NCBI GenBank assembly: GCA_049684795.1
Contig: JBAVGL010000332.1
Location: 1 to 56,731 of the forward strand
DNA from: Chitinivibrionales bacterium
Lineage (GTDB): Bacteria > Fibrobacterota > Chitinivibrionia > Chitinivibrionales > FEN-1185
DNA length: 56,731 nt
Direction: 5' to 3'
In this document: positions 33,856-48,062 of the stretch, piece by piece
Layout: each line of letters begins with the position of its first letter
Numbering within the stretch: position 1 is the stretch's first letter
Position numbers and translations under genes: made by a program
Notes under the pieces: model-generated
Seen by the model: only the letters and a program-made list of their open reading frames with translations
What the model was told of the DNA's origin: nothing
Database searches by the model: none

Positions 33856-34266
33856 GCTGTTCCTAAAATATTGTAATATTACATCGTAATTTTCCTAACG
33901 ATTATATTATATATTATAAAAAATTTAAAATCAAGTTATTTTTTTAGCTTGCATTCTGTAAAGTATACTCTCGCGTTTATTAATCACCATCGGTTCATCC
34001 TGTCCCCGTGCTATAATCGCCACCACACCCTGACTTGTCAATTCCGCGTGCGACCCGTCTTTTCTTCACTTCGATAGATTTTGATTGTTGCATTTTTGCA
34101 ACAGTGATGGGCTTACATAGAGGGATTTTAATTATGCACAGGCAACACATTGATTTTAATAGCAGTATTTTATTATGATGTAAATTTATGCTCACAAGCA
34201 CACGGTTAGGTCAGAAATTGCACACGCATTGGCTCATGTAAGTTATTATTATTTATATATATTATA

Positions 34267-34300
34267 TAATAATAATAATAATAATACATACATACACACA
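34267..34300. repeat. Microsatellite (TAA)n followed by a (CATA)/(CA) run
   Basis: taataataataataataata catacatacacaca, read directly from the sequence. Confidence 0.9.
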
Positions 34301-34305
34301 TTATT

Positions 34306-34353
34306 TATACGTGCGCGCGTGCATGTGCGCGTGCGCGCGTGCATGTGCGCGTG
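34306..34353. repeat. 48-nt perfectly alternating pyrimidine-purine tract containing a 20-nt unit twice
   Basis: tatacgtgcgcgcgtgcatgtgcgcgtgcgcgcgtgcatgtgcgcgtg. The unit gtgcgcgcgtgcatgtgcgc occurs at 34311-34330 and 34331-34350. Confidence 0.9.
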
Positions 34354-34759
34354 AGAATCTATGTGCCTATATATAGGCGTGTAGTGGTGGAAATGCACAC
34401 TCATCTAAGTATTTGATTTGTATGAAAAAGGATGAGCACACGGTTTTAGCTCACCTGTTTTGAAGGGTATTTGGCGTAGTTTTAAATATGTTTTGTATGT
34501 AAAAAATGTGTTTTTATGATTTGCCAATATATTGTTTAATATTAATTTTAGGAGATAGGTATATTAATTATGGGTGTTTTTAACGGGTTTATATATTGTT
34601 CAATATGTATTATTTGATGTTTGTTACATATTTAAATTTGTTTATTTGGTGGTTTGTGTTATATTGCCGTTGTTTTAGGGATATTTTAATCAATGTCAAT
34701 ATTGTATTTATAGGTTATTTTGCAGTGTGTTGATACGTTTTTATTATATTTGTATTATA

Positions 34760-34789
34760 TTGATGTTGCTGTTTTGGTATAACTATACA
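34760..34789 (+). promoter_or_regulatory. Candidate sigma70-like promoter for the rightward regulatory genes
   Basis: TTGATG - 18 nt - TATACA, about 27 nt upstream of the ATG at 34816, with AGGAGG at 34805-34810. Confidence 0.3.
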
Positions 34790-34815
34790 TATTTAACTTG
34801 TTTTAGGAGGAAAAC

Positions 34816-35142
34816 ATGCTGACGAAAAGGCAGATTTTGGAGGCTGCGGGGTATGATGGACGTACAAAAAAACAGATTTTGGAGGCTGCGGGGTATAAGC
34901 CCGGTGTCGGGCGTCCTCGCATGTATAATATTAAAATCCAACTTTGTTTACATAATGAAATGTTCGCCAAGATACCGATGCCCAGGTCAGAGTGGATTCG
35001 GGCCGCGATAACAGAAAAACTGGCTGTGGAGCTGGCGCTATCTGCATCGCGCGACGCGGGTATAGCGTCGCCGCCGAAGCCAGAACCAGAGGAAAACCCA
35101 GATCGATACCTATCCAAGGACGAGCAGGAGGAGGATAATTAA
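34816..35142 (+). CDS. Ribbon-helix-helix DNA-binding protein with a duplicated N-terminal peptide
   Basis: IKIQLCLHNEMFAKIP..RSEWIRAAITEKL fits the RHH strand-helix-helix pattern. The N-terminus carries KRQILEAAGY / KKQILEAAGY, encoded by a perfect 24-nt direct repeat (34831-34854 and 34873-34896). Confidence 0.6.
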   Translation: MLTKRQILEAAGYDGRTKKQILEAAGYKPGVGRPRMYNIKIQLCLHNEMFAKIPMPRSEWIRAAITEKLAVELALSASRDAGIASPPKPEPEENPDRYLSKDEQEEDN

Positions 35143-35156
35143 TGTTCCTTGCCGAG

Positions 35157-35209
35157 CATCATTTGTAAAGCATTTTAATTTTATTATTACATCATTTGTA
35201 AAGCATTTT
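35157..35209. promoter_or_regulatory. Two perfect 20-bp direct repeats (operator-like)
   Basis: catcatttgtaaagcatttt at 35157-35176 and 35190-35209, centres 33 bp apart, in the gap between the RHH gene and the next gene. Confidence 0.5.
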
Positions 35210-35338
35210 CATAGAGAGATTTTATTTAATTAAATTATTTTTATATTTTGTTAAAATAGTTGTTGGCTTCTGTTGTGTTTTGTGGTATATTTAATATATA
35301 GGACAGAGAGAAGCAAAACACAAACCGAGGAGGATCAG

Positions 35339-35590
35339 ATGAAACTCAACAAAATCACAGCCCTGAAAAACGGAAACCAGTTGTTTGCATATTGGGCCAA
35401 TAATCGCGGGCGTGGCTCTGATAACTGCACGCTGCTGGTTGTTCCGGCAGACGAACAGCGCCCCAATTTTTCACGTGACGTGAAAAATGTTATCGCTGAA
35501 ACCAGAACCAGCTCATGGCGCGGTCTGGTCAATCTGTCAAATGCCGTCTGCAACCAGCTCGGAATCTCAAAACAGGAGTTGTGCGCATGA
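35339..35590 (+). CDS. Hypothetical protein
   Basis: 83 aa from MKLNKITAL, with GAGGAGG 6 nt upstream. Confidence 0.5.
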   Translation: MKLNKITALKNGNQLFAYWANNRGRGSDNCTLLVVPADEQRPNFSRDVKNVIAETRTSSWRGLVNLSNAVCNQLGISKQELCA

Positions 35591-35772
35591 ACGGACAACT
35601 CTGGCAGGAATGTTATTGCGGAACAGAACCGGTCTGCGCATCGTGCGAAAAATGCAAAAAACATTGCACGTGCGGGAAGCAGGTTCAACCAAAAATATCA
35701 ACGGAATGCGCGGAACCGTATCGGCGCGGAATCGGGCAGGGATTTGGTTCAACGGAGGACGGCGACGCATGA
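35587..35772 (+). CDS. Small Cys-rich protein
   Basis: 61 aa from MNGQLWQECYCG. ATGA overlap with the upstream stop. Nine cysteines (CASCEKCKKHCTC). Confidence 0.45.
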   Translation: MNGQLWQECYCGTEPVCASCEKCKKHCTCGKQVQPKISTECAEPYRRGIGQGFGSTEDGDA

Positions 35773-35945
35773 AAAACAAAACTGACGTGATAAAAATTCG
35801 CATTGATTCGGATGTGAAAACCGAACTGGAAAAAATAGCAGAATCCGAACAGCGCACATTGGCCGGGCAAATCAGATTAGCGTTGAGCGAGTGGTTTAAA
35901 ACGAAGAGCGCCCGTCCTGGGCGCGGAGCCGCCGCCAAACACTAA
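35769..35945 (+). CDS. Ribbon-helix-helix (CopG/Arc-like) DNA-binding protein
   Basis: 58 aa. VIKIRIDSDVKTELEKIAESEQRTLAGQIRLALSEWF is a textbook RHH pattern. ATGA overlap with the upstream gene. Confidence 0.6.
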   Translation: MKNKTDVIKIRIDSDVKTELEKIAESEQRTLAGQIRLALSEWFKTKSARPGRGAAAKH

Positions 35946-36075
35946 TGAAACGGCCAGCACAGCATACAACAGCCCCATGCCGTCCGCTTCGCCAATTGCT
36001 GAAGCAGCAACAGCGGCATAGGGCGAACGTTATACCGGAAAACCACTCTGAAACCTGCACAGAAGGGATTTTATC

Positions 36076-37042: not shown

Positions 37043-37263
37043 ATTGCCCTCACTGTTCTGGCCACCTATACATGCAGGGTGGCCAGTTTCAAATTTCAGG
37101 CCAGATTGTCACCCACGGATTTTGCCAGAACGAAAAATGTAGATCCTACGGCAAACCGCTCCGGTTTATTCTCCCATCGCTTCCTTCCACGGAATCCCGG
37201 TCGCCATCTTCTGTTCGTAATGAAACCGTTTGCGTGTCGCAATGGCCCCAGGAATCCGTTTAA
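36985..37263 (+). CDS. Small zinc-ribbon protein
   Basis: Start at MSASPMPDY, preceded by GGGAGG. CPHCSG...CQNEKC. The 3-prime ~98 nt overlap the convergent primase gene. Confidence 0.4.
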   Translation: MSASPMPDYDTAENYNPPMNCPHCSGHLYMQGGQFQISGQIVTHGFCQNEKCRSYGKPLRFILPSLPSTESRSPSSVRNETVCVSQWPQESV

Positions 37264-39871
37264 GCAGTCTACCCCACGACTTGGACCAGGGAGAGTCTCT
37301 GAGCAGCTTCTTGAGGCCCTTCTGCGAATCTGAGATATAAATTAGACCAGCGTCGCGATCGAGACTGATGCCGTAACGCTTCAAACTCATTGCCTCGGGA
37401 CAGAGATCAATGTTTTCCCCCGAATACGATTCGGTCCAATCCTGCAAATATTGCAGGAGTTCCGCAATCGAAATTTCCCCGGGCCTCAATGCGTTCGGGA
37501 TGCAGGACCCTAAAATATGTTCCAGGCAGGCTTTTACATCTGATTTTTGATTCACGGCCTCCTGATCTCCCCAATTCTGAGCATCGACCCAGGCCTGAGC
37601 GGCCTCAACAGTAACCACACTATCAGACACCAGCGAGTAAGCGCCGGCCAGAAGCGGCGCCACCTGGTCCCCGGATCGGCGATTGCCGATTTTATCCGAG
37701 ACCACTATGGTAAAAACGTCGATGTTTTTGCGGATTACCGGGATCATATTAATTATTCGCATTCGAAACGCCGCGCACCAATCGTCGGTAATCGTTTCCG
37801 AAATCAGTTTTTTCAGGTCTGCAAAATGTTCCTTCTTGGTTTTCCCGAGCCGATCAAACGGAGACTGTAGCCCGATCACGGAAATCCGAGTCTCGTCGGC
37901 CTGCTGATAGAGATTGACACCGACGGAGCTCATGAAAAACGAGGACCGAATGCGAAATGAAATGGCCCTATGGTCCTGGCCGCCCTTGGTGATGCGTGCG
38001 CCGTTGTCGGAAAATGCCTGCCGAGCGAGAGTGAGAATTGATTGTATACGCTGCTGTGCCGACCAATCCTCTCCCTCGAACTCATCGATCACCACGGCCA
38101 GCGCGTCGGTATTGAGCGTTTGCCGGATACCTGCTTCGGTAGTGGCGGATGACAATGGCAACGCAAACTCCCCCAGGATCGGCCGCATGATCGAGTCAAT
38201 GATAAACGTTTTCCCGGCGCCGGCCTGAGATGTCAGCCATAAATGTGGTCGATATTTTAGGGCGCCGCAGATGCAGGCGACAGCCACCCAGCCGGTGAAC
38301 AGTTTTGAATGCAGCGGTTTTTCCCAGAAAAGCATATCGGAAATTTGTTGCAGACGATTTGCGGAGAGTTTAGACAGCGATTCCCCGGGCTCGTGTTCGA
38401 GTGGTACCGCGGCCTCGTAAATAAACCGGGTTTTAATTTCGGCGAGGTCCATGGGTTTCCCATCGACGATCAGATGATCGCCCAGATGCAGGACTGAGCG
38501 CCCCTCATCATACCACGCGCCACGGCCGCGCTGCATATCCGGATTATAAATTCCAACAGATTCAGAACCCCGCAGTAATTCGCACGCGGCCAGCCGCCAT
38601 TGTACACCCTGCTTACCCGGATAACGAGTCTCCCAAAATTGCAGGGGCGCCAGGGCGATCAACTCGCCGGATCCGTGCTGAGACCGCCGTATTGCCATGA
38701 CCTGGCGCGTACCGTTCGGCAGATAATAGCAATGGTCCCGGAGAATGCCGAGAAAAATAAATGGGAATTTTTTTTCGTCAGGATTGTTTTCCGGTGGCGG
38801 GGGCGGCGGAGGTGGCGATTCCTCGATCTGTTTAACCGGCAGAGAGACCGGCTTAAATCTGGTTTTCTTGATAAAAGCAACTACTGCCGCAAAATCCCAA
38901 CCATCATTTAGGATCGCGTCGGCCGCGTCCCAGGCTTTCGGTTTGTCTTCTGGAATTTTGAGCACGAGGAATTCCGTCGCGGCGATCCGCGTCATAACAT
39001 CATCCATGGCCTTGCGTCCGACGTCGTCATTGTCCGGCCACAATAGTAATTTTCTTCCGTTCAGTGGTCCCCAATCGGCTTTCGAAACGGCATTCACCCC
39101 GCCGACCCAGCAGGTTGCAACGATATCCGCCTGAGCCGTTTCAAACAGTGCCTGTAGGGCCTCGGCTTTTTTCTCGCCCTCTACGACTACCACTTGCGCA
39201 GAGGGCGAATGCGATATTTTATCCAGATTGTATATCGGGCGCGCGCCCTCGATACCGCGGAAACGCCATTTTATTTTTCCATCCTGGTTTTTCCATAGTG
39301 TCAATTGAGGAGTTTCTTTGCCTTCCGGAGTTTCGTATCGCACCACGTAGAATAAAATCACACCGAGCTGGTTTTTATATGGCCAGAAATGCGTGATTTT
39401 ATAGCCGAACCAAACACCTTCGATTTTTATTCGGCGTTCGATAGGCAATTTTGGAGGGTTCTCTGCTACGGATTTTTGCAGGGTCCACACATCGGGCGGT
39501 TTTGGCTGAGCCGGTTCGGTTGGGCGTTGCGGGGCGGGTTGATCGATTGATAATATTTTGCTCAATTGCAGTGCCGCCTCTCCGTTTTTTATCCCGTTGA
39601 TATATGCGTATAGACTGATCAGATCCCCGCCGCGATCCGCCGTGGCAAAATCCGCCCAGTACCCGGTTGACAGATTAATTTTAAATGACCCCGCCGAGCC
39701 GTCGGCACGCGTGGGATTTTTAACCGTGTATTCCTGCCCGACAAGTTTTCCACCCGGAACCCATTGCTCGATAAGGGCGCGCGCGCAGGAGAGAGCGGTT
39801 TGAGATATTGTATTAAAATCAATGGTTTTGTTCATGAGGTTTTTAAAATCCGCGCCCAACGTGTGCCGCAT
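37166..39871 (-). CDS. Bifunctional primase-helicase (Toprim primase plus P-loop NTPase)
   Basis: N-terminal GSFKINLSTGYWADFA..GGDLISL is a phage/plasmid primase motif. Toprim region VVVVEGEKKAEAL...WPDNDDVGRKAM. A poly-Pro linker (PPPPPPPP) follows. Walker A SQAGAGKTF and Walker B AVVIDEFEGE. Confidence 0.85.
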   Translation of the reverse strand: MRHTLGADFKNLMNKTIDFNTISQTALSCARALIEQWVPGGKLVGQEYTVKNPTRADGSAGSFKINLSTGYWADFATADRGGDLISLYAYINGIKNGEAALQLSKILSIDQPAPQRPTEPAQPKPPDVWTLQKSVAENPPKLPIERRIKIEGVWFGYKITHFWPYKNQLGVILFYVVRYETPEGKETPQLTLWKNQDGKIKWRFRGIEGARPIYNLDKISHSPSAQVVVVEGEKKAEALQALFETAQADIVATCWVGGVNAVSKADWGPLNGRKLLLWPDNDDVGRKAMDDVMTRIAATEFLVLKIPEDKPKAWDAADAILNDGWDFAAVVAFIKKTRFKPVSLPVKQIEESPPPPPPPPENNPDEKKFPFIFLGILRDHCYYLPNGTRQVMAIRRSQHGSGELIALAPLQFWETRYPGKQGVQWRLAACELLRGSESVGIYNPDMQRGRGAWYDEGRSVLHLGDHLIVDGKPMDLAEIKTRFIYEAAVPLEHEPGESLSKLSANRLQQISDMLFWEKPLHSKLFTGWVAVACICGALKYRPHLWLTSQAGAGKTFIIDSIMRPILGEFALPLSSATTEAGIRQTLNTDALAVVIDEFEGEDWSAQQRIQSILTLARQAFSDNGARITKGGQDHRAISFRIRSSFFMSSVGVNLYQQADETRISVIGLQSPFDRLGKTKKEHFADLKKLISETITDDWCAAFRMRIINMIPVIRKNIDVFTIVVSDKIGNRRSGDQVAPLLAGAYSLVSDSVVTVEAAQAWVDAQNWGDQEAVNQKSDVKACLEHILGSCIPNALRPGEISIAELLQYLQDWTESYSGENIDLCPEAMSLKRYGISLDRDAGLIYISDSQKGLKKLLRDSPWSKSWGRLLKRIPGAIATRKRFHYEQKMATGIPWKEAMGE

Positions 39872-39884
39872 AGCCGAAGTGTAC

Positions 39885-40448
39885 TCATTTTGGCTTGCGG
39901 CTGTTGTATGCTGTTAATCGCGCTTCCGAAGTGTTCTCCGGGGCGCTGTCTTGAGCGCAGGACGCGCTCTCTTGTTTCATAAAGCAGAGCCAGTGCGTTT
40001 TCTGAGACTTCCCGGATGGGTGGCCGAACAATGGCTTTTCTTCCGTACATTTCAAAACCTCGCTCAATAAAACATCGCATTCATTCCATTTAAAAATCAG
40101 AATACCATTTACTTTTAAAACACGAAAGCACTCTGAAAATCCTTTGCTTATATCTTCTCGCCACGTTTGCCGGTCAAGGCTACCGTAGCATTTTGCCATG
40201 TAACTATTTTCACCTAAAAAAAAATGTGGTGGGTCAAAAACTACAAGTTGGAAAGTGCAATCCGGCACATCCATTTTTCTAAAATCCATTACCACGTCAG
40301 GCAAGCATTTCCTTACTCTTGCGTCTTTCCCACTTCCAACAATTTCCGGTTCCATTACGCGCCGGTCCGCAAATACCACGTTAGGATTCTGCTTGTCAAA
40401 CCAGAAAGCACGACCACCACAGCAAGCATCTAATATTTGTTTTTGCAT
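39885..40448 (-). CDS. SAM-dependent nucleic-acid N-methyltransferase (DPPH motif)
   Basis: Start set at MQKQILDACCGG, which has a promoter-like cassette and an AAGAGAAAA RBS upstream. ILDACCGGRAFWF is motif I and VVFDPPH is motif IV of amino-methyltransferases. Confidence 0.7.
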   Translation of the reverse strand: MQKQILDACCGGRAFWFDKQNPNVVFADRRVMEPEIVGSGKDARVRKCLPDVVMDFRKMDVPDCTFQLVVFDPPHFFLGENSYMAKCYGSLDRQTWREDISKGFSECFRVLKVNGILIFKWNECDVLLSEVLKCTEEKPLFGHPSGKSQKTHWLCFMKQESASCAQDSAPENTSEARLTAYNSRKPK

Positions 40449-40490
40449 TTTGTTTTCTCTTCGCGGCACGACGCCGCGTTCTTGCGCCCC

Positions 40491-40527
40491 GGCTATAATT
40501 TCCAGAGCGCAAAAATTTCTTACAACG
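40491..40527 (-). promoter_or_regulatory. Repeated leftward promoter-like cassette, copy P1
   Basis: Minus strand reads CGTTGTAA-17 nt-GAAATTATAGCC. A hairpin CGCGGC-gtcgt-GCCGCG (40462-40478), an RBS and the ATG at 40448 follow. Confidence 0.45.
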
Positions 40528-40533
40528 TTCCAC

Positions 40534-41610
40534 CTATGGCGAAGTTTGCGCTTCGCAAATTTGGGGCGCTTCGCCCGGCATGGCGATGTTGTGTGATGTA
40601 CCGGCCTGTTCCTTAATGTCCTGCTGGGCACTCTTCGCACAGGACGTGCGATCTTCGTATTGGCACTCCGGCAGCGTGCCAGAAAGTATCGCGTTTCCGC
40701 AAGTGATGCGCCCCTTGTCTTCATCTTCGCTTGCAATAAATACAAGCGTTTCAAATCCTGACTTTTTCAATCGTTCCTCAAGTTCAAGATACGGTTCTGG
40801 GGTTGTATAATCACCTTCTGTTTTAATTCCGTTTTGCAACGCCTCTGCCGTTTTGTGCATTGGCGTAAGTTTCGCAATGTACAGTTCAGGAGAAAAAAGC
40901 CTTGCAAGTTTTTCCGTATCAACCGTGTACCCAGCAACCGCAAAATTGAGCGTGATTTTTCTTCCGACCGGAATAATTCCGCGCATAATATCGGCAATCT
41001 CTTCGAGCGTACAGGCATTGCTTGAAAACATGCGCTGTCGTTCAGCTTCGTCCGTTGAGTTTATCGAAAGTTGCAACCCTGCATTCCCTTTGTAAACTCG
41101 GTTTTTGAGGCGCATCCAAGTATGCACAAAGGTCTTTAGCCATTCATTCCGGCGCGGCATCATGGTTGAAACAACGGGGTGTGGATTGTAAGTATCGCCA
41201 AGGTGTTCCATAATCCATTTGCCACAATCCAAAACGGCGGGATTCCAAGATGGCTCCCCCATGCGTGCAAAGTGAATATTAAGGCGGTTCGTTTGGCTCG
41301 GAACTCCCGGCAAAGTGAGAGCAATAAGAATCTGGCTGCAAAGATCGTGAAATGTGGCGTTTCTCCCTGCACCAACTTTGGGAACATCACAAAATTCGCA
41401 ACCCATAGAACACCCGTATTGAGTTGACACAGTGACAACCCATTTTTCGGTAAGAGGCATAAGCGGCAACCCACTTGGAACCGGCTTGTGCTGATTTAGA
41501 TTGATTTTTTGGCCATAGTCGGCAAGAGAAAGCATTTCCAGTTTTCCTTTTGCTCCCTCGACGATAAGAATATTACCGGTTGGCACGGCAAGATTTTGAA
41601 TTATTTGCAT
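40534..41610 (-). CDS. Radical SAM enzyme with RlmN/Cfr-like architecture
   Basis: Start set at MQIIQNL, preceded by AGGAGA. VSTQYGCSMGCEFC is a CX3CX2C motif in an RlmN-like context. GLQLSINSTDEAERQRMF, IAKLTPMH and the C-terminal ITCGNAIL parallel the RlmN motifs ALSLHA, NLIPFN and AACGQL. The last ~20 codons run into repeat copy 1. Confidence 0.7.
   Translation of the reverse strand: MQIIQNLAVPTGNILIVEGAKGKLEMLSLADYGQKINLNQHKPVPSGLPLMPLTEKWVVTVSTQYGCSMGCEFCDVPKVGAGRNATFHDLCSQILIALTLPGVPSQTNRLNIHFARMGEPSWNPAVLDCGKWIMEHLGDTYNPHPVVSTMMPRRNEWLKTFVHTWMRLKNRVYKGNAGLQLSINSTDEAERQRMFSSNACTLEEIADIMRGIIPVGRKITLNFAVAGYTVDTEKLARLFSPELYIAKLTPMHKTAEALQNGIKTEGDYTTPEPYLELEERLKKSGFETLVFIASEDEDKGRITCGNAILSGTLPECQYEDRTSCAKSAQQDIKEQAGTSHNIAMPGEAPQICEAQTSP
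40536..40568. repeat. Palindromic GC-rich element, copy 1 of 3
   Basis: atggcgaagtttgcgcttcgcaaatttggggcg. Contains the hairpin GCGAAG-tttgcg-CTTCGC. Lies at the 3-prime end of the radical SAM ORF. Confidence 0.85.
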
Positions 41611-41652
41611 TTGGTTTTCTCCTGCCGCCACGATGGCGGCTCTTGTGCCCAG

Positions 41653-41692
41653 CCTATAATATTTGATTTACAGGCCGGTATTTCTTACAACG
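41653..41692 (-). promoter_or_regulatory. Repeated leftward promoter-like cassette, copy P2
   Basis: Minus strand reads CGTTGTAAGAAAT...TATTATAGGC, with a longer spacer. The hairpin GCCGCCA-tcg-TGGCGGC (41624-41640), AGGAGA and the ATG at 41610 follow. Confidence 0.4.
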
Positions 41693-41718
41693 TTCTCGCA
41701 AACGGGCGCTGTGCCCGC

Positions 41719-42033
41719 CTACAAATCCCCTTCAAATTCCATAGTGTCCTGCGGCGCGTCTTGCATTTGGTTTACTCTTCGAATCAGCCGGTCGAGAGCG
41801 TTCTTCGGGCTATTGTCCCCGGGGCCGTTGTCGGCGACTTCACAATCCTCATCTTCTTCTTCCCATTCTTTTTTGCGGGAGTAGAAGACAACTTTCGAAT
41901 AATCGTTCGGCATCATTTCGCACGAAAGAACCTGTTCCTTCGCCATTTCACAAGCGTCGTCCGGCAACTCCACGGAAGTTTCTTCGCGATTGCCGAACGG
42001 GTGAACAAACTGAGTCAATTTCACGGTTCCCAT
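41719..42033 (-). CDS. Acidic hypothetical protein
   Basis: 104 aa with RBS AAAGGAAAAAG. Carries an EEEDEDCE acidic patch. Confidence 0.5.
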   Translation of the reverse strand: MGTVKLTQFVHPFGNREETSVELPDDACEMAKEQVLSCEMMPNDYSKVVFYSRKKEWEEEDEDCEVADNGPGDNSPKNALDRLIRRVNQMQDAPQDTMEFEGDL

Positions 42034-42401
42034 TTCTTTTTCCTTTCTTCGCGCCGCCTATAATATCTGGCTTTAACGAGACACGGCTTATCTTTACAAT
42101 AGCGACCTTTAATAATCCAACAGTTATAACCAGCACACTCCCACGAATGGCATGGCACCATAGCGCTGTTAGTGGATGTGACTTGCGCTTCCTTGATGTA
42201 TTGCTGCGCGTTTGGGAGCGGGCAATCATCCAGAAAGTCACAGGACACAACCATTTTTGGTATTGACTCTAAAAGCTTTTGACAATAATATTCCCCGTTA
42301 AGCTCAGCTACTTCAGTACATGAGCAACAATCAGCACAGCAAGCAATTTCTACAATGCGACAACCATTTTTTACTTGCCCGCTATATTTTCCTTTTTTCA
42401 T
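42021..42401 (-). CDS. Cys-rich hypothetical protein
   Basis: Start set at MKKGKYSGQ, directly after a degenerate cassette copy (42408-42446). Many cysteines (CCADCCSC). Confidence 0.4.
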   Translation of the reverse strand: MKKGKYSGQVKNGCRIVEIACCADCCSCTEVAELNGEYYCQKLLESIPKMVVSCDFLDDCPLPNAQQYIKEAQVTSTNSAMVPCHSWECAGYNCWIIKGRYCKDKPCLVKARYYRRREERKKKWEP

Positions 42402-42451
42402 CGCGCAGCCTTTCAATTTTAAAAGCGCAAGGCATTTACACCAACGTTTGC

Positions 42452-42661
42452 CTAAGTGCGAAGTGCCGTTTCGGCATTTAGGCGCTTTTTTAACCAATCC
42501 ATTAAATAGTCAACTGTGTCGGTTGAATGATGCCCGTCCGCAAAATATTCACGGCACATATTAAGCGCCGTCGCACTTTGGCTGTTGTAAACGTGTTTTT
42601 GGCGCATCCTTGATTTTCTTCCGGCGCGATCTTTTTTTGTTTTCGTATTCTTGGTATTCAT
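42452..42661 (-). CDS. Small basic hypothetical protein
   Basis: 69 aa. GGAG lies 6 nt upstream of the ATG. Confidence 0.4.
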   Translation of the reverse strand: MNTKNTKTKKDRAGRKSRMRQKHVYNSQSATALNMCREYFADGHHSTDTVDYLMDWLKKRLNAETALRT

Positions 42662-42730
42662 CGTTATCTCCGCAGTAATCTGTTGTTAAAAATTCTGCCA
42701 TACCGTCAGGATCAAATTCTAAATCCATTA

Positions 42731-42847
42731 CTTCCAATCCTTTGGTTTGTCAATAATAATCCAATTAGGTTTGCTGTTAAATTTTGCTTTGTTATAAAAT
42801 ATCTTATCTTTTGGCAACGGTGTTTTTAACATTTCTTTGCTTGTCAT
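42731..42847 (-). CDS. Very small hypothetical protein (38 aa)
   Basis: Not in the ORF track. MTSKEMLKTPLPKDKIFYNK..., preceded by GAGGAGAAGC and cassette copy P5. Confidence 0.3.
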
Positions 42848-42865
42848 TTTGCTTCTCCTCGCGCC

Positions 42866-42903
42866 GGACTTTAATTTCCAAGCGCCAAAAATTGTTTACA
42901 ACG
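42866..42903 (-). promoter_or_regulatory. Repeated leftward promoter-like cassette, copy P5
   Basis: Minus strand reads CGTTGTAA-17 nt-GAAATTAAAGTCC. Confidence 0.45.
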
Positions 42904-42937
42904 TACACGGCACCCGCCTGCCGGCCGGTATGCCTGG

Positions 42938-43807
42938 TTAATTACTTATCCCGGCTGGCATGGCTGCCGTTGTTAGAGGCTGTTTAACCGGACCTCCACA
43001 CATGGCACCGATACACGCCGGTCTTGACCAACGCCAGCCCCACTTAATCCATTCATGATCGCGCCTGCCTTCTTTATCCCGGTAGATCATAACCATAGGC
43101 ATGAGGCCTATCGTACAGGCCCGGCGACATCTTCGTTCCGCTGACTCGATAGTGTCGTTTGGATAACCAGCAAGAACGTAACACCTGAAAGTGTGCGACG
43201 AAGATTTGAACCCCGCCGCCCATATTAATTTGCAGGCCTGTTCAAGCGGCTCCCAATCCGATTCTTCGTCATACGCGAAAAACACTCTTTTAGGTTTAAT
43301 GCTTGCAAGTAAATCAACGTGCCATTTTTGGAGCCGCTTGGCTTCAATGCCGCCAGTAAACTCGGCGCGAACCGGTTGACGTGCAAGCATGTTGAAAACA
43401 GATCGAATGTGTTCTTCCGAACAGGCCAGCAAATTATCGTCCAGTATGTTCCACCCGTTTTCTATCGGCAATTCCAACAGGCGGGGTTCTCTTTTCCAGA
43501 CCGCGCAGAACCAGCACTTGTTTGGGCAACCCCTCGATGTGATGACATAGCCTGGTTTAAGGTACATGCCGGGCTGGAAAACGTCGCCGGGTTGATTGTA
43601 TGCCGGGCCTCCCATTTTTACAGGCGCGATCCGTTCCCATTGGGCCGCCAAAAACTCAGCATGAGATATATCGTATGTAAAGGCAACCGAAACATGCACC
43701 TCTGAAATGTCCGGCAAAAACATAGGCGGCGGCCCAAAGAACGCTAATTTGTCTGTGGGGCTGGCCTTCGTTTTCCGGGGAAAAACTCTTGCGATAGTCG
43801 GTGCCAT
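42938..43807 (-). CDS. Radical SAM enzyme (second, unrelated type)
   Basis: VITSRGCPNKCWFCAV is a CX3CX2C motif. FTGGIEAKRL and YVLAGYPNDT resemble core radical SAM strands. Confidence 0.7.
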   Translation of the reverse strand: MAPTIARVFPRKTKASPTDKLAFFGPPPMFLPDISEVHVSVAFTYDISHAEFLAAQWERIAPVKMGGPAYNQPGDVFQPGMYLKPGYVITSRGCPNKCWFCAVWKREPRLLELPIENGWNILDDNLLACSEEHIRSVFNMLARQPVRAEFTGGIEAKRLQKWHVDLLASIKPKRVFFAYDEESDWEPLEQACKLIWAAGFKSSSHTFRCYVLAGYPNDTIESAERRCRRACTIGLMPMVMIYRDKEGRRDHEWIKWGWRWSRPACIGAMCGGPVKQPLTTAAMPAGISN

Positions 43808-43876
43808 ATTAGTATAAAAGTCCGGTTAAATTGCCTCTAACGTCCGCCGCACTCGCCCGAAGCGCGGTAATACCGG

Positions 43877-46240
43877 TTATTGCTCAACCGAGTTTTGGGC
43901 TGCGGCTGTTGTACATTGTTTGGCCGTTTCCTCTGTTTCAACACGCGCATCTTCGTATTTATTTTCAAAACTAAACAATGTGTTTTCTTTTGTTTTTAAT
44001 TCTGCATCGGCAAGATTTTTAACCGCAATATTGTAATAAGATTCTTTGAGTTCTATTCCTATTGCCTTACGGCCATAAAGTAACGCCTGGTATGCCTCGC
44101 TTCCGATACCCATAAAAGGCGTCAAAAGTGTTTCTTTGGGATTTGAATAAAGTTTAATACATCTTTCAATTGTGCCAAGCTGCAAGGGGCAAATATGTTT
44201 TTCATCATCTTTTGCGCGGGCTGTTGTAAATTGTAGGGTGTCCGATTCTGATATTCCCGTCCAGATTCCACCGGCCCAATCAATCCATTTTTCGTTGTCA
44301 ATTTCTCCATTTTTTACTGGAGTTATGGGGACCGCCGAATCGCCTTTTTTCTTAAAAAACAATATCCGGTCAAGAATACATGGGCGGCTGCAAGAACTAT
44401 CCTTTTTCATTTGCACAAACAAAAGCCCCTTGGCGTGCGTCCTGATCGCCTGCGCTTGTGGGTTTTTTGTAACCACTGCATAACCGTGATAAATCCAGCC
44501 TTCTTTTTCGTGTGCTTTAATAACCGCACCGGGAAAGTCGCGCAAACCAATATACCCATCTTTCATTGCCATTGCCGCAATGTCGGAAGTGTGAACGCAG
44601 GATACCCGCCCAGATTTTGTTACTCTTAATATTTCTCGAATAATAAAAGCATAGTGTTCAAAAAACTCATCCCAATTTCTGCAATTGCCTAAATCAAATT
44701 CGCTGGCGGAATACGTAAATAAGTCAGCAAACGGGGGGGAATAGACAGAGACGTCTATTGATTCTGATTTTATTTCCCTTAATATTTCGCACGAATCTCC
44801 AAGGTATGCGGTATAGTTTTCGCCTTTTGTTATTGTCTGTTTTGGTTTTTCAATTTTGACAGTTTCCATGTTTTTTATCTCCAATTCTTCATATTTTTTA
44901 ACGCGGGATATTAATTCAGAAGTCATGCGTTCTGCCATTTTTTCTTTAGCCATTACATTGTCGTAAATTTGCCTTTCAAGATTTGTTAAAACAATATAGA
45001 CGTTTACTGGTTTGTCCTGCCCAAACCGCCATTCTCTGCGAATGCACTGGTAGAACGTTTCCCAAGAATCATTTAACCCCACAAAAACCATGTTACAAGC
45101 ATTTTGAAAATTCATCCCGAATCCCGCTATCTTGGGTTTTGTTATCATAACACGATATTTTTTGTCTTGAAAATTCTCTATCATTTCGGTTTTAAATTCA
45201 AGCGAATCTTCTCCGCAAATTTCCACGGCACCGTCTATTTTTTCTTTTAATCCCTTGCTCTCATTATTCAAACCGCACCACAATATCCATTGCTCATTAT
45301 TTCCATTCACTAAATCAAGAACCGTTTCAATCCTGTCTTCAAAAGTTGTTCTTCTTATGTTGGCCCTATCTGCAATTCCTTTTAGTTTGGTAAAAAACAA
45401 TTGCCCTGGCGGTTGATAATCAACATTCACGAAAGATGGAATAATACTCAATTTTGGCAAAACATATCCCCGATCATCGTAACCAAGATTTGAGGGGGTT
45501 TTAATAGACATTGACCATGTAGACATCCAATGATAATATGTTTCCCTGGCGTAGTTTCTCAATCGCCACTCTTGACCGTTTTTTCCAGATTGTTTTTTCT
45601 TTATTGTTTCATAATCGCCATTTCCGTTTTTAAACTCTATTTCAGTGATCTTATTGGCATGAATAAAGAATGTTGCAAGCATCTCATTATTTTTCATTAT
45701 TCCTAAAAATTCCGCATGGTTGCCTATTTCAGATTCGTCGTTTGGTGCCGGTGTTGCTGTACAGCAAAGGCGATATGGCGTTTTTTCAAACATGCTTATT
45801 ACAAGCTGTTTTGTTTTTCCATCGAGACTTTTTAAAATGCTCGATTCATCCAAAACAACAGCCTGAAAATCTTCTGGATTAAATTTATCAACCATTTCAT
45901 AGTTTGTGATGTTTATTCCTTCAACAACGTCCTTTCCGTCCCGAGTATAATGTATTTCTGTATTTGTTATTTTCTTTGCAAGCCTAACTGTTTGCCGAGC
46001 GACGGAAAGGGGAGCAATAATCAAGGATCTCTTTGCTATAAGCCGTGCCCATTCTGTTTGGCAGTGGGTTTTCCCGAGCCCAGTGTCGAGGAACAAAGCG
46101 CAACGCCCTTTTTTAATAGCCCACCTCACAATGTCCTTTTGAAAAGGAAATAAGGACGGGTTAATATCTGACAAAGAAATATCTTTCCCATGCATTGTGT
46201 TGCGGATTGCTTTTGTTTTAATAAATTCGTGATAGTTCAT
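43877..46240 (-). CDS. SNF2-family helicase fused to an N4/N6 DNA methyltransferase
   Basis: N-half has LDTGLGKT, VVLDESS, CCTATPAPND and GFGMNFQ...RFGQ (SNF2 motifs). C-half has SVYSPPFADLFTYS (motif IV, SPPF) and LLTPFMGIGSE (motif I), as in N6_N4_Mtase. Confidence 0.85.
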   Translation of the reverse strand: MNYHEFIKTKAIRNTMHGKDISLSDINPSLFPFQKDIVRWAIKKGRCALFLDTGLGKTHCQTEWARLIAKRSLIIAPLSVARQTVRLAKKITNTEIHYTRDGKDVVEGINITNYEMVDKFNPEDFQAVVLDESSILKSLDGKTKQLVISMFEKTPYRLCCTATPAPNDESEIGNHAEFLGIMKNNEMLATFFIHANKITEIEFKNGNGDYETIKKKQSGKNGQEWRLRNYARETYYHWMSTWSMSIKTPSNLGYDDRGYVLPKLSIIPSFVNVDYQPPGQLFFTKLKGIADRANIRRTTFEDRIETVLDLVNGNNEQWILWCGLNNESKGLKEKIDGAVEICGEDSLEFKTEMIENFQDKKYRVMITKPKIAGFGMNFQNACNMVFVGLNDSWETFYQCIRREWRFGQDKPVNVYIVLTNLERQIYDNVMAKEKMAERMTSELISRVKKYEELEIKNMETVKIEKPKQTITKGENYTAYLGDSCEILREIKSESIDVSVYSPPFADLFTYSASEFDLGNCRNWDEFFEHYAFIIREILRVTKSGRVSCVHTSDIAAMAMKDGYIGLRDFPGAVIKAHEKEGWIYHGYAVVTKNPQAQAIRTHAKGLLFVQMKKDSSCSRPCILDRILFFKKKGDSAVPITPVKNGEIDNEKWIDWAGGIWTGISESDTLQFTTARAKDDEKHICPLQLGTIERCIKLYSNPKETLLTPFMGIGSEAYQALLYGRKAIGIELKESYYNIAVKNLADAELKTKENTLFSFENKYEDARVETEETAKQCTTAAAQNSVEQ

Positions 46241-46381
46241 TTAAAAAGTTATCACCGTAGTTAATGTTGCTGCCGCTATCCAATAAACAACCATTCTCCA
46301 ATTTCCCCCAGGTATGTAACCAATTGCAACACCAATATCGAGTAGAATCAAAATGGTTGGAATTATTTTTTCTCTTTGCAT
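46241..46381 (-). CDS. Small membrane protein (46 aa)
   Basis: Not in the ORF track. MQREKIIPTILILLDIGVAIGYIPGGNWRMVVYWIAAATLTTVITF has two hydrophobic helices. Preceded by CAGGAAATAAA and cassette P7. Its stop abuts the ATG of the helicase-methylase gene. Confidence 0.4.
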   Translation of the reverse strand: MQREKIIPTILILLDIGVAIGYIPGGNWRMVVYWIAAATLTTVITF

Positions 46382-46397: not shown

Positions 46398-46434
46398 GTT
46401 TATAATTTCAGAAACGGCCAAATTGTGTACAACG
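46398..46434 (-). promoter_or_regulatory. Repeated leftward promoter-like cassette, copy P7
   Basis: Minus strand reads CGTTGTAC-17 nt-GAAATTATAAAC. Confidence 0.45.
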
Positions 46435-46457
46435 TGCGCCGCACTCGCCCGCCGTGC

Positions 46458-47230: not shown

Positions 47231-47266
47231 CCTATAAATTCAAAGAGCGAAAAATTTTATACAACG
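47231..47266 (-). promoter_or_regulatory. Repeated leftward promoter-like cassette, copy P10 (no ORF with an RBS follows for about 290 nt)
   Basis: Minus strand reads CGTTGTAT-17 nt-GAATTTATAGGC. Confidence 0.4.
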
Positions 47267-47285
47267 TGCGCCGCACTGGACGCCG

Positions 47286-47565: not shown

Positions 47566-47605
47566 GGCTTATAATTCCAGAAAGGCCATTATTGCCGTGC
47601 AACGG
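47566..47605 (-). promoter_or_regulatory. Repeated leftward promoter-like cassette, copy P11
   Basis: Minus strand reads CGTTGCAC-19 nt-GAATTATAAGCC. Confidence 0.4.
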
Positions 47606-48062
47606 TTGACACATGGCGAAGTTTGCGCTTCGCATGTGCCCGCTTCGGGCGAACAGCATGGGGCTGTTGTGTGCTGTTTTGAGCGCATTCCCTATTATTC
47701 AGGGCGGCGCATATAAACTCCGCCATATCGGCAGAGTGAGCCGTAGCAACTACGGCAAGAAATTTCGGACGAAATTTACCTTGGCGAAAGGTATCGTCTA
47801 TATCCCATGCACCATATCCGCAATCATGTATTTGGTATCTTGCGCCGCCCATATAAATCCTTTCTTTGCGCTCAAAATGGCCTACAACGGTTGACACATG
47901 GCGAAGTTTGCGCTTCGCAAATTTGGGGCGGCTTCCGCCCGCCATGTGTTTGTTGTAAGCTGTAAATTTTTCTTCCGCACGTTGTCGCGCTTCGTTGCGA
48001 TACGATGACGCAAATTCGTGAAATAAATCATCTACTAACTTCAACACCTGTTCTTTATTCAT
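47589..48062 (-). CDS. Hypothetical protein; ORF reads through palindromic repeat copy 3, with a possible nested second start at 47852
   Basis: Start set at MNKEQVLKL, with cassette P13 upstream. A second cassette-like copy and the RBS GAAAGGA precede the in-frame MGGARYQIHD at 47852. Both repeat copies translate to ..KFAKRKLRH... Confidence 0.4.
   Translation of the reverse strand: MNKEQVLKLVDDLFHEFASSYRNEARQRAEEKFTAYNKHMAGGSRPKFAKRKLRHVSTVVGHFERKERIYMGGARYQIHDCGYGAWDIDDTFRQGKFRPKFLAVVATAHSADMAEFICAALNNRECAQNSTQQPHAVRPKRAHAKRKLRHVSTVARQ
47600..47634. repeat. Palindromic GC-rich element, copy 2 of 3
   Basis: caacggttgacacatggcgaagtttgcgcttcgca is identical to the left 35 nt of copy 3. Confidence 0.85.
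47885..47948. repeat. Palindromic GC-rich element, copy 3 of 3 (most complete)
   Basis: caacggttgaCACATGGCGaagtttgcgcttcgcaaatttggggcggcttccgcccGCCATGTG. The outer 8-9 bp stem encloses two hairpins. Confidence 0.85.

Follow-up and report, generated by a model that had tools for sequence, protein, structure and literature searches.

The 6.4-kb stretch at positions 39885 to 46240 of the DNA analyzed here (56,731 nucleotides in full, hereafter the window) is best explained, and in our judgment probably so, as a mosaic of independent cassettes in the early operon, with each enzyme acting separately. The stretch would thus be an accessory segment of a tailed phage, set in its early (replication) operon and assembled from cassettes that were acquired separately. 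Most of these cassettes begin with a promoter-like element, and they would encode no multi-enzyme pathway. Four enzyme genes, all on the minus strand, adjacent and codirectional, were located there: a small DNA methyltransferase (MTase; 39885..40448), an RlmN/Cfr-like radical SAM enzyme (rSAM1; 40534..41610), a compact second radical SAM enzyme (rSAM2; 42938..43807), and an SNF2 translocase fused to a DNA MTase (SNF2-MTase; 43877..46240). These ORFs, their domain assignments, and every motif quoted for them in a preliminary description of the sequence were confirmed, the domains by profile matches. The stop codon of the small MTase gene lies 13 nt from the start of the primase gene (37166-39871; phrog_35358, "DNA primase," 1.9e-107).

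The four genes had been proposed to form one system, with a co-occurrence analysis set beforehand as the test, and this analysis came out against the proposal. Results revealed that, across 236 related viral loci, the genes almost never occurred together. All 27 SNF2-MTase loci and all 49 small-MTase loci lacked the other three genes, rSAM1 was found in 0 of 80 rSAM2 loci, and among the 80 rSAM1 loci, two had rSAM2, two had SNF2, and one had the small MTase. The survey covered at most ±10 kb of flank per locus, and many contigs were short, so that it would miss partners located farther away in those genomes. Moreover, a syntenic relative (L160) retained the helicase, VRR-NUC, rSAM2, and primase genes (88%, 81%, ∼61%, and ∼75% amino acid identity to the window, respectively), while SNF2-MTase, rSAM1, and the small MTase were absent and 1.8 kb stood in place of the window's 8.7 kb. 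The GC content was 0.387 in SNF2-MTase, 0.441 in the small MTase, and 0.474 in rSAM1, with 0.49 to 0.53 in the backbone genes, including rSAM2 (0.513) and the primase (0.525). Since one locus (L074) carries rSAM1, SNF2-MTase, and rSAM2 inside 8 kb, in a gene order unlike that of the window, and two others (L007 and L162) pair a helicase-MTase with rSAM2, a loose functional affinity among these genes is possible.

Most of the cassettes are headed by separate copies of a repeated, promoter-like element. Exact ACGTTGTA cores numbered six against 1.64 expected, every one of them on the coding strand and within the interval from 40.5 to 48.1 kb, and five were intergenic, upstream of a gene start, and inside an aligned ∼45-nt element; a generic sigma-70 scan gave no enrichment. 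On the minus strand, a composite intergenic repeat (40494..40568; repeat families D1 and D3, alignment A5) consists of a GC hairpin-like palindrome followed by promoter-like ACGTTGTA-N22-GAAATTATAG, with the exact ACGTTGTA at 40521-40528; it is upstream of the small MTase and extends into the C-terminal tail of rSAM1, which is not conserved. The copy upstream of rSAM1 (41655..41700, minus strand; ACGTTGTA at 41686-41693) reads GAACGTTGTAAGAAAT...ATATTATAG and then GGAGAAAACCAAATG in alignment A5, while a D1 copy (42865..42914, minus strand; ACGTTGTA at 42897-42904) lies directly past the rSAM2 stop codon and heads a block of small ORFs (ATG at 42846). Another minus-strand element, recovered by repeat alignment and the ACGTTGTA scan, heads the SNF2-MTase cassette (46401-46445), where a 46-aa hydrophobic ORF (46241-46381, minus strand) also lies. 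The copy preceding rSAM2 is degenerate, and folds predicted at the junctions were no more stable than those of shuffled sequence. The small-ORF block (41719..42737, minus strand) comprises four candidates, 41719-42033 (acidic), 42021-42497, 42452-42661, and 42561-42737. Several Cys-rich small proteins had been reported between the enzymes, of which one held up (42021-42497, with 18 Cys in 158 aa). No match was found for the first three ORFs in Pfam, PHROG, and NCBIfam or for the two of them scanned with PADLOC, and BLASTP with all four against 172 loci returned no homologue.

Both MTases are predicted to be of familiar kinds. The small enzyme (187 aa, with DACCGG as motif I and FDPPH as motif IV) is encoded by an accessory cassette and appears to be an ordinary orphan phage DNA MTase, considering its matches to phrog_954 ("DNA methyltransferase," 1.3e-68) and, in PADLOC, to MTase_II PDLC03288 (1.3e-63) and oMTase (2.7e-47). 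SNF2-MTase (787 aa), likewise an accessory cassette, combines an SNF2 translocase (residues ∼20 to 450) with a beta-class N4/N6 DNA MTase (residues ∼470 to 760, with YSPPF), as indicated by the Pfam matches N6_N4_Mtase (7.8e-16), SNF2-rel_dom (3.8e-6), and Helicase_C (9.8e-6), and would track along DNA while working. The two enzymes most likely methylate phage DNA, each alone, and such methylation would blunt host restriction.

The sequence of rSAM1 (358 aa; cluster C67/C71/C74) identifies it as a putative widespread phage version of RlmN/Cfr that lacks the Cys used to finish the reaction. RlmN and Cfr are class A radical SAM methyl synthases, which C-methylate A2503 of 23S rRNA and A37 of tRNA. 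The motifs VSTQYGCSMGCEFC, GLQLSINS, LTPMH, and ITCGNAIL are present, and their RlmN/Cfr-like order, including the C-terminal Cys loop (RITC304GNAILSG), was upheld by alignment and profile matches, with the ATG at 41610 suiting the family N terminus. The protein matched phrog_24834 (2.3e-97; labeled unknown function), while its only NCBIfam and PDB sequence matches were to RlmN/Cfr (1.3e-9, at 37.5 bits where the cutoff is 290; 6fz6, 1.6e-6), the only sequence relatives of known function. Similarly, Cfr (9p0p) was the top PDB match of the AF2 model (pLDDT 87) in Foldseek (E 1e-5). The methyl-carrying Cys, C304, was conserved in 97/97 homologues, and the replacement of the resolving Cys by Thr, noticed by eye in the preliminary description, proved to hold throughout the family (T60 in 95/95 aligned homologues); the family has four conserved Cys columns only, and the alignment offered no other conserved Cys as a substitute. 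We infer that rSAM1 is most likely methylated on Cys304 by one SAM and that a 5'-deoxyadenosyl radical from a second SAM would bring the one-carbon unit onto a purine-type substrate, at an sp2 carbon. As the resolving Cys of RlmN/Cfr is absent, the covalent intermediate would be released by another route, or release may not occur.

The clade of rSAM1 is large and resides mainly on phages and mobile elements; matches numbered about 305 in IMG/VR but only 27, spread over very diverse phyla, among 185,579 species genomes. In some relatives, one of them from a crAss-like phage, the Cys loop is encoded apart, as a peptide of ∼40 aa. Among the cellular relatives, the fusion partners were a QueT-type ECF transporter S component plus a bona fide MTA/SAH nucleosidase (224 bits, cutoff 169), a thioredoxin-reductase-like domain, or an isochorismatase; identity was 33 to 37% for the transporter/nucleosidase- or isochorismatase-family-fused forms. 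MTA/SAH nucleosidase removes SAH and 5'-deoxyadenosine, both by-products of class A chemistry. The S-component fusion of the cellular relatives argues for a small molecule over RNA as the substrate.

For the phage enzyme, RNA (tRNA or rRNA) would be favored over DNA or a free base, and the RNA role is weakly better supported than the DNA role. RtcB/RlaP genes were modestly enriched, occurring within 10 kb at 13 of 97 rSAM1 loci versus 1 of 74 rSAM2 loci (p=0.004), the control being the loci of the other radical SAM family, whose phage types and sizes differ, and one relative that keeps both Cys lies inside a phage tRNA gene array. Immediate neighbors of rSAM1 were unrelated to each other, with no Pfam family in more than 3 of 149 neighbor proteins. 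A free small molecule (purine, deazapurine, or nicotinamide-type metabolite), with no nucleic acid polymer involved, is a minor possibility as the substrate. It is suggested by the transporter/nucleosidase and isochorismatase-family fusions, by isochorismatase and NAPRTase/NAMPT genes among the phage neighbors, by an NAPRTase adjoining a Vibrio phage homologue, by the acidic protein (pI 5.96), and by the missing counterpart, in the alignment to E. coli RlmN, of the N-terminal domain with which RlmN contacts RNA. However, those neighbor counts are tiny (1 to 2 of 149), no riboswitch was found upstream of the fused gene, by-product removal explains the nucleosidase fusion equally well, the only characterized relatives act on RNA, and RtcB/RlaP genes are enriched near rSAM1.

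rSAM2 (289 aa) would be a stand-alone backbone gene of the phage lineage, related in type to radical SAM enzymes with B12 domains. Its cluster Cys residues (C94/C98/C101, in SRGCPNKCWFC) follow an ∼85-aa N-terminal alpha/beta domain, and a fourth Cys (Cys129) is invariant. It matched phrog_9298 ("radical SAM domain protein," 2.4e-21), with Pfam Radical_SAM below threshold (7.9e-5), and 13 of 42 family members gave weak NCBIfam matches to B12-binding/radical SAM families (best, 1.1e-5), with weak family matches also counted in 7 of 42; OxsB was a weak match (E 0.19). The profile and fold comparison proposed for both radical SAM enzymes, which ranked RlmN/Cfr first for rSAM1, yielded for the rSAM2 model (AF2, pLDDT 85) no PDB match at E<1e-3, with AprD4 the best (TMq 0.54). 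A DNA MTase was present within 2 kb at 22 of 70 rSAM2 loci versus 4 of 70 rSAM1 loci (p=1.4e-4), again with the other family's loci, of differing phage types and sizes, as the control, and DNA MTases of four classes made up 11 of 144 immediate neighbors. Because rSAM2 is found preferentially beside DNA MTases of any class, its probable substrate is DNA or a deoxynucleotide. It is unlikely that SNF2-MTase and rSAM2 constitute a two-gene DNA modification unit, in which rSAM2 elaborates or complements the methyl mark, even though 69 nt separate them in the window, a helicase plus MTase adjoins rSAM2 in L007 and L162, and 31% of rSAM2 loci have a DNA MTase within 2 kb: the neighboring MTases fall into four classes with no relation to each other (C5, N4/N6, and two Dam types), so no single methyl mark could be the substrate, rSAM2 occurs in 0 of 27 SNF2-MTase loci, the rSAM2 of L160 has no MTase, and the GC gap between the two genes is 0.13.

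In another reading, rSAM1 would methylate adenine C2 or C8 of phage DNA as a new base modification against restriction. Its position in the replication operon, between the DNA MTase and other DNA enzymes, and its mainly phage carriers would suit this role, but we consider it very unlikely, since DNA MTases are scarce near rSAM1 elsewhere, no DNA-related partner is conserved, two-SAM chemistry without the turnover Cys would seem ill-suited to whole-genome modification, and rSAM1 is instead associated with RNA-repair genes and, in the case of one relative, tRNA genes. Lastly, that all four enzymes form a single DNA hypermodification or anti-defense system is extremely unlikely, as the adjacent, codirectional early genes, the three genes of L074, and the MTases enriched at rSAM2 loci are outweighed by the essentially absent co-occurrence, the three genes missing from L160, the different L074 order, the GC differences, the separate promoter-like elements, and the lack of hypermodification precursor-pathway genes among 38 cluster, early-region, and packaging ORFs scanned.

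Independent cassettes thus remain the preferred reading, and the components can be compared with the nearest described systems. Like RlmN/Cfr, rSAM1 has a CX3CX2C cluster in a matching ...VS(S/T)Q.GC...C.FC context, an MGEP motif, and, in unchanged order, SxxS and (L/I)(T/I)P(M/W)(H/N) strands, and its C-terminal strand, acidic run, and (A/T)CG(Q/N) loop (TCGN here) align with those around the methyl-carrying Cys355 of E. coli RlmN (AACGQL). Unlike RlmN, it has Thr for the resolving Cys118 and no N-terminal domain; its structural similarity to Cfr is only TM 0.44/0.51; and it is a stand-alone gene, mainly on phages and mobile elements, with relatives carrying a separate Cys-loop peptide or transporter, nucleosidase, reductase, or hydrolase fusions. 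rSAM2 resembles B12-domain radical SAM enzymes, a group of class B methylases and relatives such as AprD4, OxsB, and the TIGR04072/TIGR04014 families, in its (T/S)SRGCP..C.FC cluster context and preceding alpha/beta domain, with weak family matches and best fold coverage by AprD4, but its N-terminal domain is not long enough to be a cobalamin-binding Rossmann domain, it has no B12-binding Pfam match or significant PDB fold match, it possesses Cys129, and its carriers in these data are phage and prophage-like contigs.

The small MTase matches orphan/Type II phage MTases at full length with high scores and shares their Rossmann motif I and DPP[YFWH]-type motif IV, while differing in having no Pfam or NCBIfam model match and no solved-structure relative found. 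SNF2-MTase is, by its domains, predicted to be the known SNF2-translocase/DNA-methylase counter-restriction pairing, in agreement with the anti-restriction type named for it beforehand: SNF2-adenine MTase pairing is a widespread counter-restriction module (Iyer et al. 2017, PMC5512222), and SWI2/SNF2 ATPase-DNA methylase pairs occur in phages, plasmids, and conjugative elements, with P1 DarB as the archetype (PMC5512222). The window's fusion likewise joins an SNF2-type helicase core and an amino-DNA MTase in one phage-encoded polypeptide; unlike P1 DarB, a polyvalent virion protein of >2000 aa, it is 787 aa long, is encoded in the early operon, and has SPPF as motif IV, so that it may be N4-C or N6-A specific. 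Finally, in T4-type phages, PeSL promoter-terminator cassettes mediate modular shuffling (PMC2839356, PMC4122927). Although the repeats of the window differ in sequence and phage type, they resemble PeSLs, at the level of sequence, in that a ∼45-nt promoter-like repeat, preceded by GC-rich palindromes, lies at the variable-gene junctions of a plastic region, and a relative of this phage exists without those variable genes.

The four enzyme genes all lie on the minus strand, and the ORF listing bore out the coordinates and motifs first reported for each of them. The small methyltransferase (MTase; 39885-40448, 187 aa, FDPPH motif) matched phrog_954, annotated "DNA methyltransferase" (1.3e-68), and the PADLOC Type II MTase model PDLC03288 (1.3e-63), with no match in Pfam or NCBIfam, and is directly followed by the primase gene (37166-39871). 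The RlmN/Cfr-like radical SAM protein, rSAM1 (40534-41610, 358 aa), matched phrog_24834 of unknown function (2.3e-97), while the second radical SAM protein, rSAM2 (42938-43807, 289 aa), matched phrog_9298, with Radical_SAM below the Pfam threshold (23.3 bits against a cutoff of 29.5). In the translocase-methylase fusion, SNF2-MTase (43877-46240), SNF2-rel_dom (26.7 bits, cutoff 24.9), Helicase_C (26.2, cutoff 23.5), and N6_N4_Mtase (59.1, cutoff 26.7) each exceeded the Pfam cutoff, and its PDB matches were 2zie and Rad26/CSB. Terminase, portal, and major head genes identify the window as DNA of a tailed phage. Megablast matched none of 50,697 phage records to the cluster, and the closest isolate carrying rSAM1 was Bacteroides phage Versailles (homologue WAK79139.1, 49% amino acid identity). 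A hydrophobic 46-aa ORF without a family match (MQREKIIPTILILLDIGVAIGYIPGGNWRMVVYWIAAATLTTVITF, 46241-46381) was also found between a promoter-like element and the SNF2-MTase start. Positions 34243-35212, which separate the late from the early gene block, may constitute a regulatory or origin region; this stretch contains an AT-rich palindrome (34243-34281), the perfect tandem 20-mer CGTGCGCGCGTGCATGTGCG in two copies (34310-34349), and two direct-repeat pairs (34822-34896 and 35157-35212), and the sign of the GC skew flips here. An ORF for an Arc-like repressor follows at 35487-35945.

The preliminary description had proposed these four genes as a candidate nucleic-acid modification or anti-defence system within the replication operon, to be given up if they did not co-occur in other genomes. 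To examine this, IMG/VR loci, each with flanks of at most 10 kb per side, were screened by BLASTP, phmmer, and family HMMs. Among 80 rSAM1 loci, rSAM2 was detected in 2, SNF2 in 2, and the small MTase in 1; among 80 rSAM2 loci, SNF2 was detected in 1 and neither rSAM1 nor the small MTase in any. None of the 27 loci of the SNF2-MTase fusion contained rSAM1, rSAM2, or the small MTase, nor did any of the 49 small-MTase loci contain rSAM1, rSAM2, or SNF2. Three of the four genes occurred together in a single locus (L074), in a gene order unlike that of the window. Moreover, a syntenic relative of the window phage (L160), with amino acid identities of 88% for the helicase, 81% for VRR-NUC, ∼75% for the primase, and ∼61% for rSAM2, carries rSAM2 alone and is devoid of SNF2-MTase, rSAM1, and the small MTase, its VRR-NUC-to-primase interval being 1.8 kb compared with 8.7 kb in the window. 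The GC content gene by gene agrees with the four genes not being a conserved system: 0.49 to 0.53 for backbone genes and 0.513 for rSAM2, compared with 0.387 for SNF2-MTase, 0.441 for the small MTase, and 0.474 for rSAM1. Neighbor clustering and Pfam scans of immediate neighbors (149 for rSAM1 and 144 for rSAM2) revealed no conserved partner protein for either radical SAM gene, with no Pfam family in more than 3 of the 149 rSAM1 neighbors, and the PADLOC defence models matched neither protein. The idea of a four-gene system is therefore not supported, and its parts are regarded as independent accessory genes.

Repeated sequence elements mark the segment in which these genes lie. An aligned element of ∼45 nt, ACGTTGTA-N22-GAAATTATAG, precedes most genes of the variable segment, which are successive and on the minus strand, with a Shine-Dalgarno sequence and then an ATG 20 to 50 nt beyond it. 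Copies are located at 40494-40538, 41655-41700, 42870-42914, 43809-43853, 46401-46445, 47233-47277, and ∼48099, the one ahead of rSAM2 being degenerate. Where 1.64 exact cores would be expected, six were counted; every one is on the coding strand, and they span 7.6 kb (40.5 to 48.1 kb). The syntenic part of L160 does not have the element in this form, and the sole exact core in L160 lies outside that part. The element may be a phage-specific early/middle promoter and a cassette boundary. In addition, the 9-mer GGCTGTTGT occurs nine times (0.27 expected), at 35966, 39899, 42580, 43904, 44219, 45855, 47052, 47662, and 48174, and is confined to the early region (35.9 to 48.2 kb); several copies lie 15 to 45 nt from stop codons of differing reading frames, and, paired with the promoter-like element, the 9-mer makes up inverted repeats flanking rSAM1, rSAM2, and SNF2-MTase. 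Stem-loops of the PeSL kind at the junctions were rejected since the predicted RNA folds were no stabler than those of shuffled sequence (z about 0), and thus only the repeats themselves are established; a generic promoter/terminator scan gave no enrichment. A 57-nt repeat with the palindrome GCGAAGTTTGCGCTTCGC was also observed in three copies (40512-40568, 47589-47645, and 47874-47930), and several listed ORFs contain the recurring peptide ...RPKFAKRKLRH... that results from its translation. The extensions of these ORFs thus appear to be artefacts of a DNA-level element, as for the 289-aa version of 39885-40754 and the unconserved tail at the C terminus of rSAM1.

rSAM2 is a backbone gene, because it is present in L160. 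Its invariant Cys residues are four (C94, C98, C101, and C129), and its N-terminal domain is truncated (∼85 aa). Class B enzymes combine a cobalamin Rossmann domain with a radical SAM core, both scoring above cutoffs; in rSAM2 the core fell below its cutoff, no B12-binding Pfam domain was matched, and NCBIfam matches were of E 1e-5 or weaker and came from a minority of members. This weak similarity points to a relationship with the B12-binding-domain lineage. Foldseek returned no match to its fold at E<1e-3 in PDB or BFVD, and the profile found no PDB sequence below E 0.15. A DNA MTase lay within 2 kb in 22 of 70 rSAM2 loci compared with 4 of 70 rSAM1 loci (p=1.4e-4), a crude comparison in that the loci of the other radical SAM family serve as the control. 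Across the rSAM2 loci (L093-L172), these MTases belong to four classes, namely, C5, N4/N6, Dam D12, and PF05869 Dam. Other recurrent neighbors were proteins resembling nucleoside deoxyribosyltransferases or dATP/dGTP diphosphohydrolases, along with DUF5131 proteins, which have a CX3CX2C motif of their own. The neighboring genes suggest a DNA- or nucleotide-directed role, and the occurrence of rSAM2 beside DNA MTases of any class provides a second, weaker lead to a possible DNA-directed radical SAM activity.

What remains is a well-defined family, that of rSAM1, which is worth an experiment. The parallel with RlmN/Cfr proposed for this protein held and extends to its whole clade. RlmN and Cfr were its only matches among curated families and PDB sequences, with scores far below the family cutoffs (TIGR00048, 1.3e-9 and 37.5 bits against 290; CfrAB, 32.4 bits against 530). 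RlmN/Cfr enzymes methylate C2 or C8 of A2503 in 23S rRNA or of A37 in tRNA. The CX3CX2C [4Fe-4S]/SAM motif of RlmN/Cfr is present in its VSxQxGC context and aligned to the RlmN cluster, and its residues (C67, C71, and C74) are kept in 95 to 96 of 97 nonredundant homologues (39 to 83% identity). The loop of the methyl-carrying C355 of Escherichia coli RlmN, ..D.D.AACGQL, aligned with EDEDKGRITCGNAILSG of rSAM1, in which C304 is invariant (97/97). Other motifs paired in the MAFFT alignment were WVVTVSTQYGCSMGCEFC with ATLCVSSQVGCALECKFC, ARMGEP with GMGEP, and KLTPMH with NLIPWN, while GFETLVFIASEDEDKGRITCGNAILSG stood opposite a 23-residue RlmN stretch; the pairing was confirmed with six phage homologues added. 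An hhalign comparison of the rSAM1 family with E. coli RlmN aligned 76 columns around the cluster and no more, so the C-terminal correspondence is drawn from the MAFFT alignments and motif identity. The AF2 model, a confident one (pLDDT 87), had Cfr as its top PDB match, at a TM of only 0.44 to 0.51. The helical N-terminal domain of RlmN has no counterpart, with RlmN residues ∼1 to 95 lying mostly opposite gaps and rSAM1 beginning with merely a ∼50-residue beta extension.

The most telling departure concerns the resolving Cys, seven residues before the cluster (C118 in RlmN, C105 in Cfr), a residue that RlmN and Cfr cannot do without in resolving the covalent enzyme-RNA crosslink (PMC9692996). 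The preliminary description had seen Thr there by eye, and Thr (Thr60 in rSAM1) occupied this column in all 95 aligned homologues, with M, L, I, N, S, or A in more distant relatives; rSAM1 thus departs from RlmN/Cfr in a defining feature. Apart from the three cluster Cys and C304, no column held Cys in more than 50% of the 97 homologues. C129 and C200, invariant and nearly invariant, respectively, among close relatives only, were rejected as substitutes, each being found in <20% of the homologues and neither in Versailles. rSAM1 is not a member of RlmN/Cfr but, by inference, would work like a class A enzyme in the first half-reaction.

The clade is abundant, with 6633 clusters at E≤1e-5 in the set of scored candidates and about 305 matches in IMG/VR. 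It is compact in sequence space: of 1.84 billion, 68 representatives reached E≤1e-30 and 262 reached the looser E≤1e-10. It is rare in cells, with 27 loci in 185,579 species representatives, mostly on MAG contigs and ranging from Patescibacteria to Bacteroides to Methanobrevibacter. Literature searches turned up no publication describing RlmN-like enzymes of phages or this clade. At least three classes of RlmN-like protein can be distinguished in phages, and the window protein belongs to the Thr class. Both Cys are present in Salmonella phage Arash, Stenotrophomonas phage ANB28, Vibrio phage 496E54-1, and Aeromonas phage Ahp1; the ANB28 gene (L203:2881-3840) sits inside a phage tRNA array, with Ile, Pro, Leu, and Thr upstream and Ser downstream. 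The Gly class, comprising crAss-like Kehishuvirus 'tikkala' (L202:2836-3758), Moorella phage MTATph1 (L204:2830-3792), and Vibrio phage D479 (L205:2893-3973), has Gly at the C118 position, and its RlmN-like ORF ends before the Cys loop, the exact AACGQ(L/M) loop being carried on a separate ORF of 40 to 43 aa immediately downstream (...GxDxxxAxAT..E....AACGQ(L/M)...), which is tandemly duplicated in D479. In 'tikkala' the core spans L202:2836-3624 and the peptide, of 43 aa, 3627-3758. Such a layout resembles an enzyme split in two or a Cys carrier made as a peptide of its own.

Cellular relatives (33 to 37% identity) likewise do not have the C118-type Cys, and each has a fusion partner of one of three kinds: an ECF transporter S component of the QueT type (P0283, P0277, P0281, and P0354, in two of these four together with a bona fide MTA/SAH nucleosidase), a flavoprotein resembling thioredoxin reductase (P0317, P0361, and P0344), or an isochorismatase-family hydrolase (P0298, P0334, and P0352). 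L285:8001-10445 also belongs to this set of fused relatives. A fused nucleosidase fits the removal of SAH and 5'-dA, and a fused reductase fits redox cycling of Cys or thiyl.

Regarding the target, an RtcB/RlaP RNA-repair gene lay within 10 kb in 13 of 97 nonredundant rSAM1 loci (L002, L013, L021, L028, L043, L045, L050, L062, L066, L068, L071, L084, and L175) compared with 1 of 74 rSAM2 loci (p=0.004), the control again being crudely the other family. RtcB and RlaP, and in one case a ligase of the T4 Rnl1 type, were also found near more distant rSAM1 relatives; L286-L291 are further loci with such genes within 10 kb of an rSAM1-family gene. In L002, a LAGLIDADG endonuclease gene interrupts RtcB. 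Given these RNA-repair genes and the rarity of DNA MTases near rSAM1, RNA is favored over DNA as the target. Action on a small molecule rather than a nucleic acid is a possible alternative: the QueT fusion hints at such a substrate in that cellular branch, and the fusions of QueT, radical SAM protein, and nucleosidase make a link to queuosine or purine salvage possible, the known enzyme of reference being the radical SAM queuine lyase QueL (q to preQ1; Clostridioides difficile Q186P0), whose operon includes QueK and QrtT. No riboswitch was found upstream of the gene encoding the triple fusion, and its chromosomal neighbors were uninformative. The window holds no tRNA genes, which excludes phage tRNAs as the target here.

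That rSAM1 represents a large, uncharacterized class A branch, mainly of phages and mobile elements, operating without a resolving Cys is offered as a rather improbable proposal. If it does, the enzyme might add a new C-methyl or methylene to host or phage RNA, DNA, or a purine metabolite, the product being released by chemistry different from the resolving-Cys route; alternatively, the reaction could end as a stable methylene-bridged protein-nucleic-acid adduct. The separate Cys-loop peptide of ∼40 aa could then be a consumable methyl carrier or a peptide attached to the substrate. An RlmN/Cfr-like enzyme is carried on thousands of metagenomic phage contigs, including those of Bacteroides and crAss-like gut phages, with the methyl-carrying Cys kept and the residue indispensable for RlmN/Cfr turnover invariably missing. 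Should rSAM1 modify host tRNA or rRNA, phages would possess a new route to reprogram translation or evade RNA-targeting defences; should it turn over without a second Cys, the accepted class A mechanism would need revision, for which the split form with its separate peptide offers a natural handle.

Compared with known systems, multi-gene phage DNA hypermodification pathways are characterized by co-occurring, co-inherited components, which the four genes are not, and by precursor and transfer enzymes (dNMP hydroxymethylase, DpdA/TGT, QueC/D/E, kinase, and glycosyl- or aminoacyl-transferase), none of which was detected in the 38 ORFs scanned, taken from the cluster, from the early region, and from among the packaging genes. 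The repeated elements resemble, as repeats only, the PeSL promoter-terminator cassettes of T4-type phages (PMC2839356, PMC4122927). Both methyltransferases are ordinary predicted counter-restriction equipment: the small MTase has the profile matches of a well-populated orphan/Type II DNA MTase family, in which it is placed, and SNF2-MTase, as had been anticipated for a helicase-methylase fusion, joins a helicase core and an amino-DNA MTase in one mobile-element polypeptide, as in the DarB-like pairing of SNF2 ATPase and DNA methylase. Such pairing is described as a counter-restriction module that pervades phages, plasmids, and conjugative elements, the archetype being P1 DarB, for which alone virion packaging and the guarding of incoming DNA from type I restriction are known (PMC5512222).
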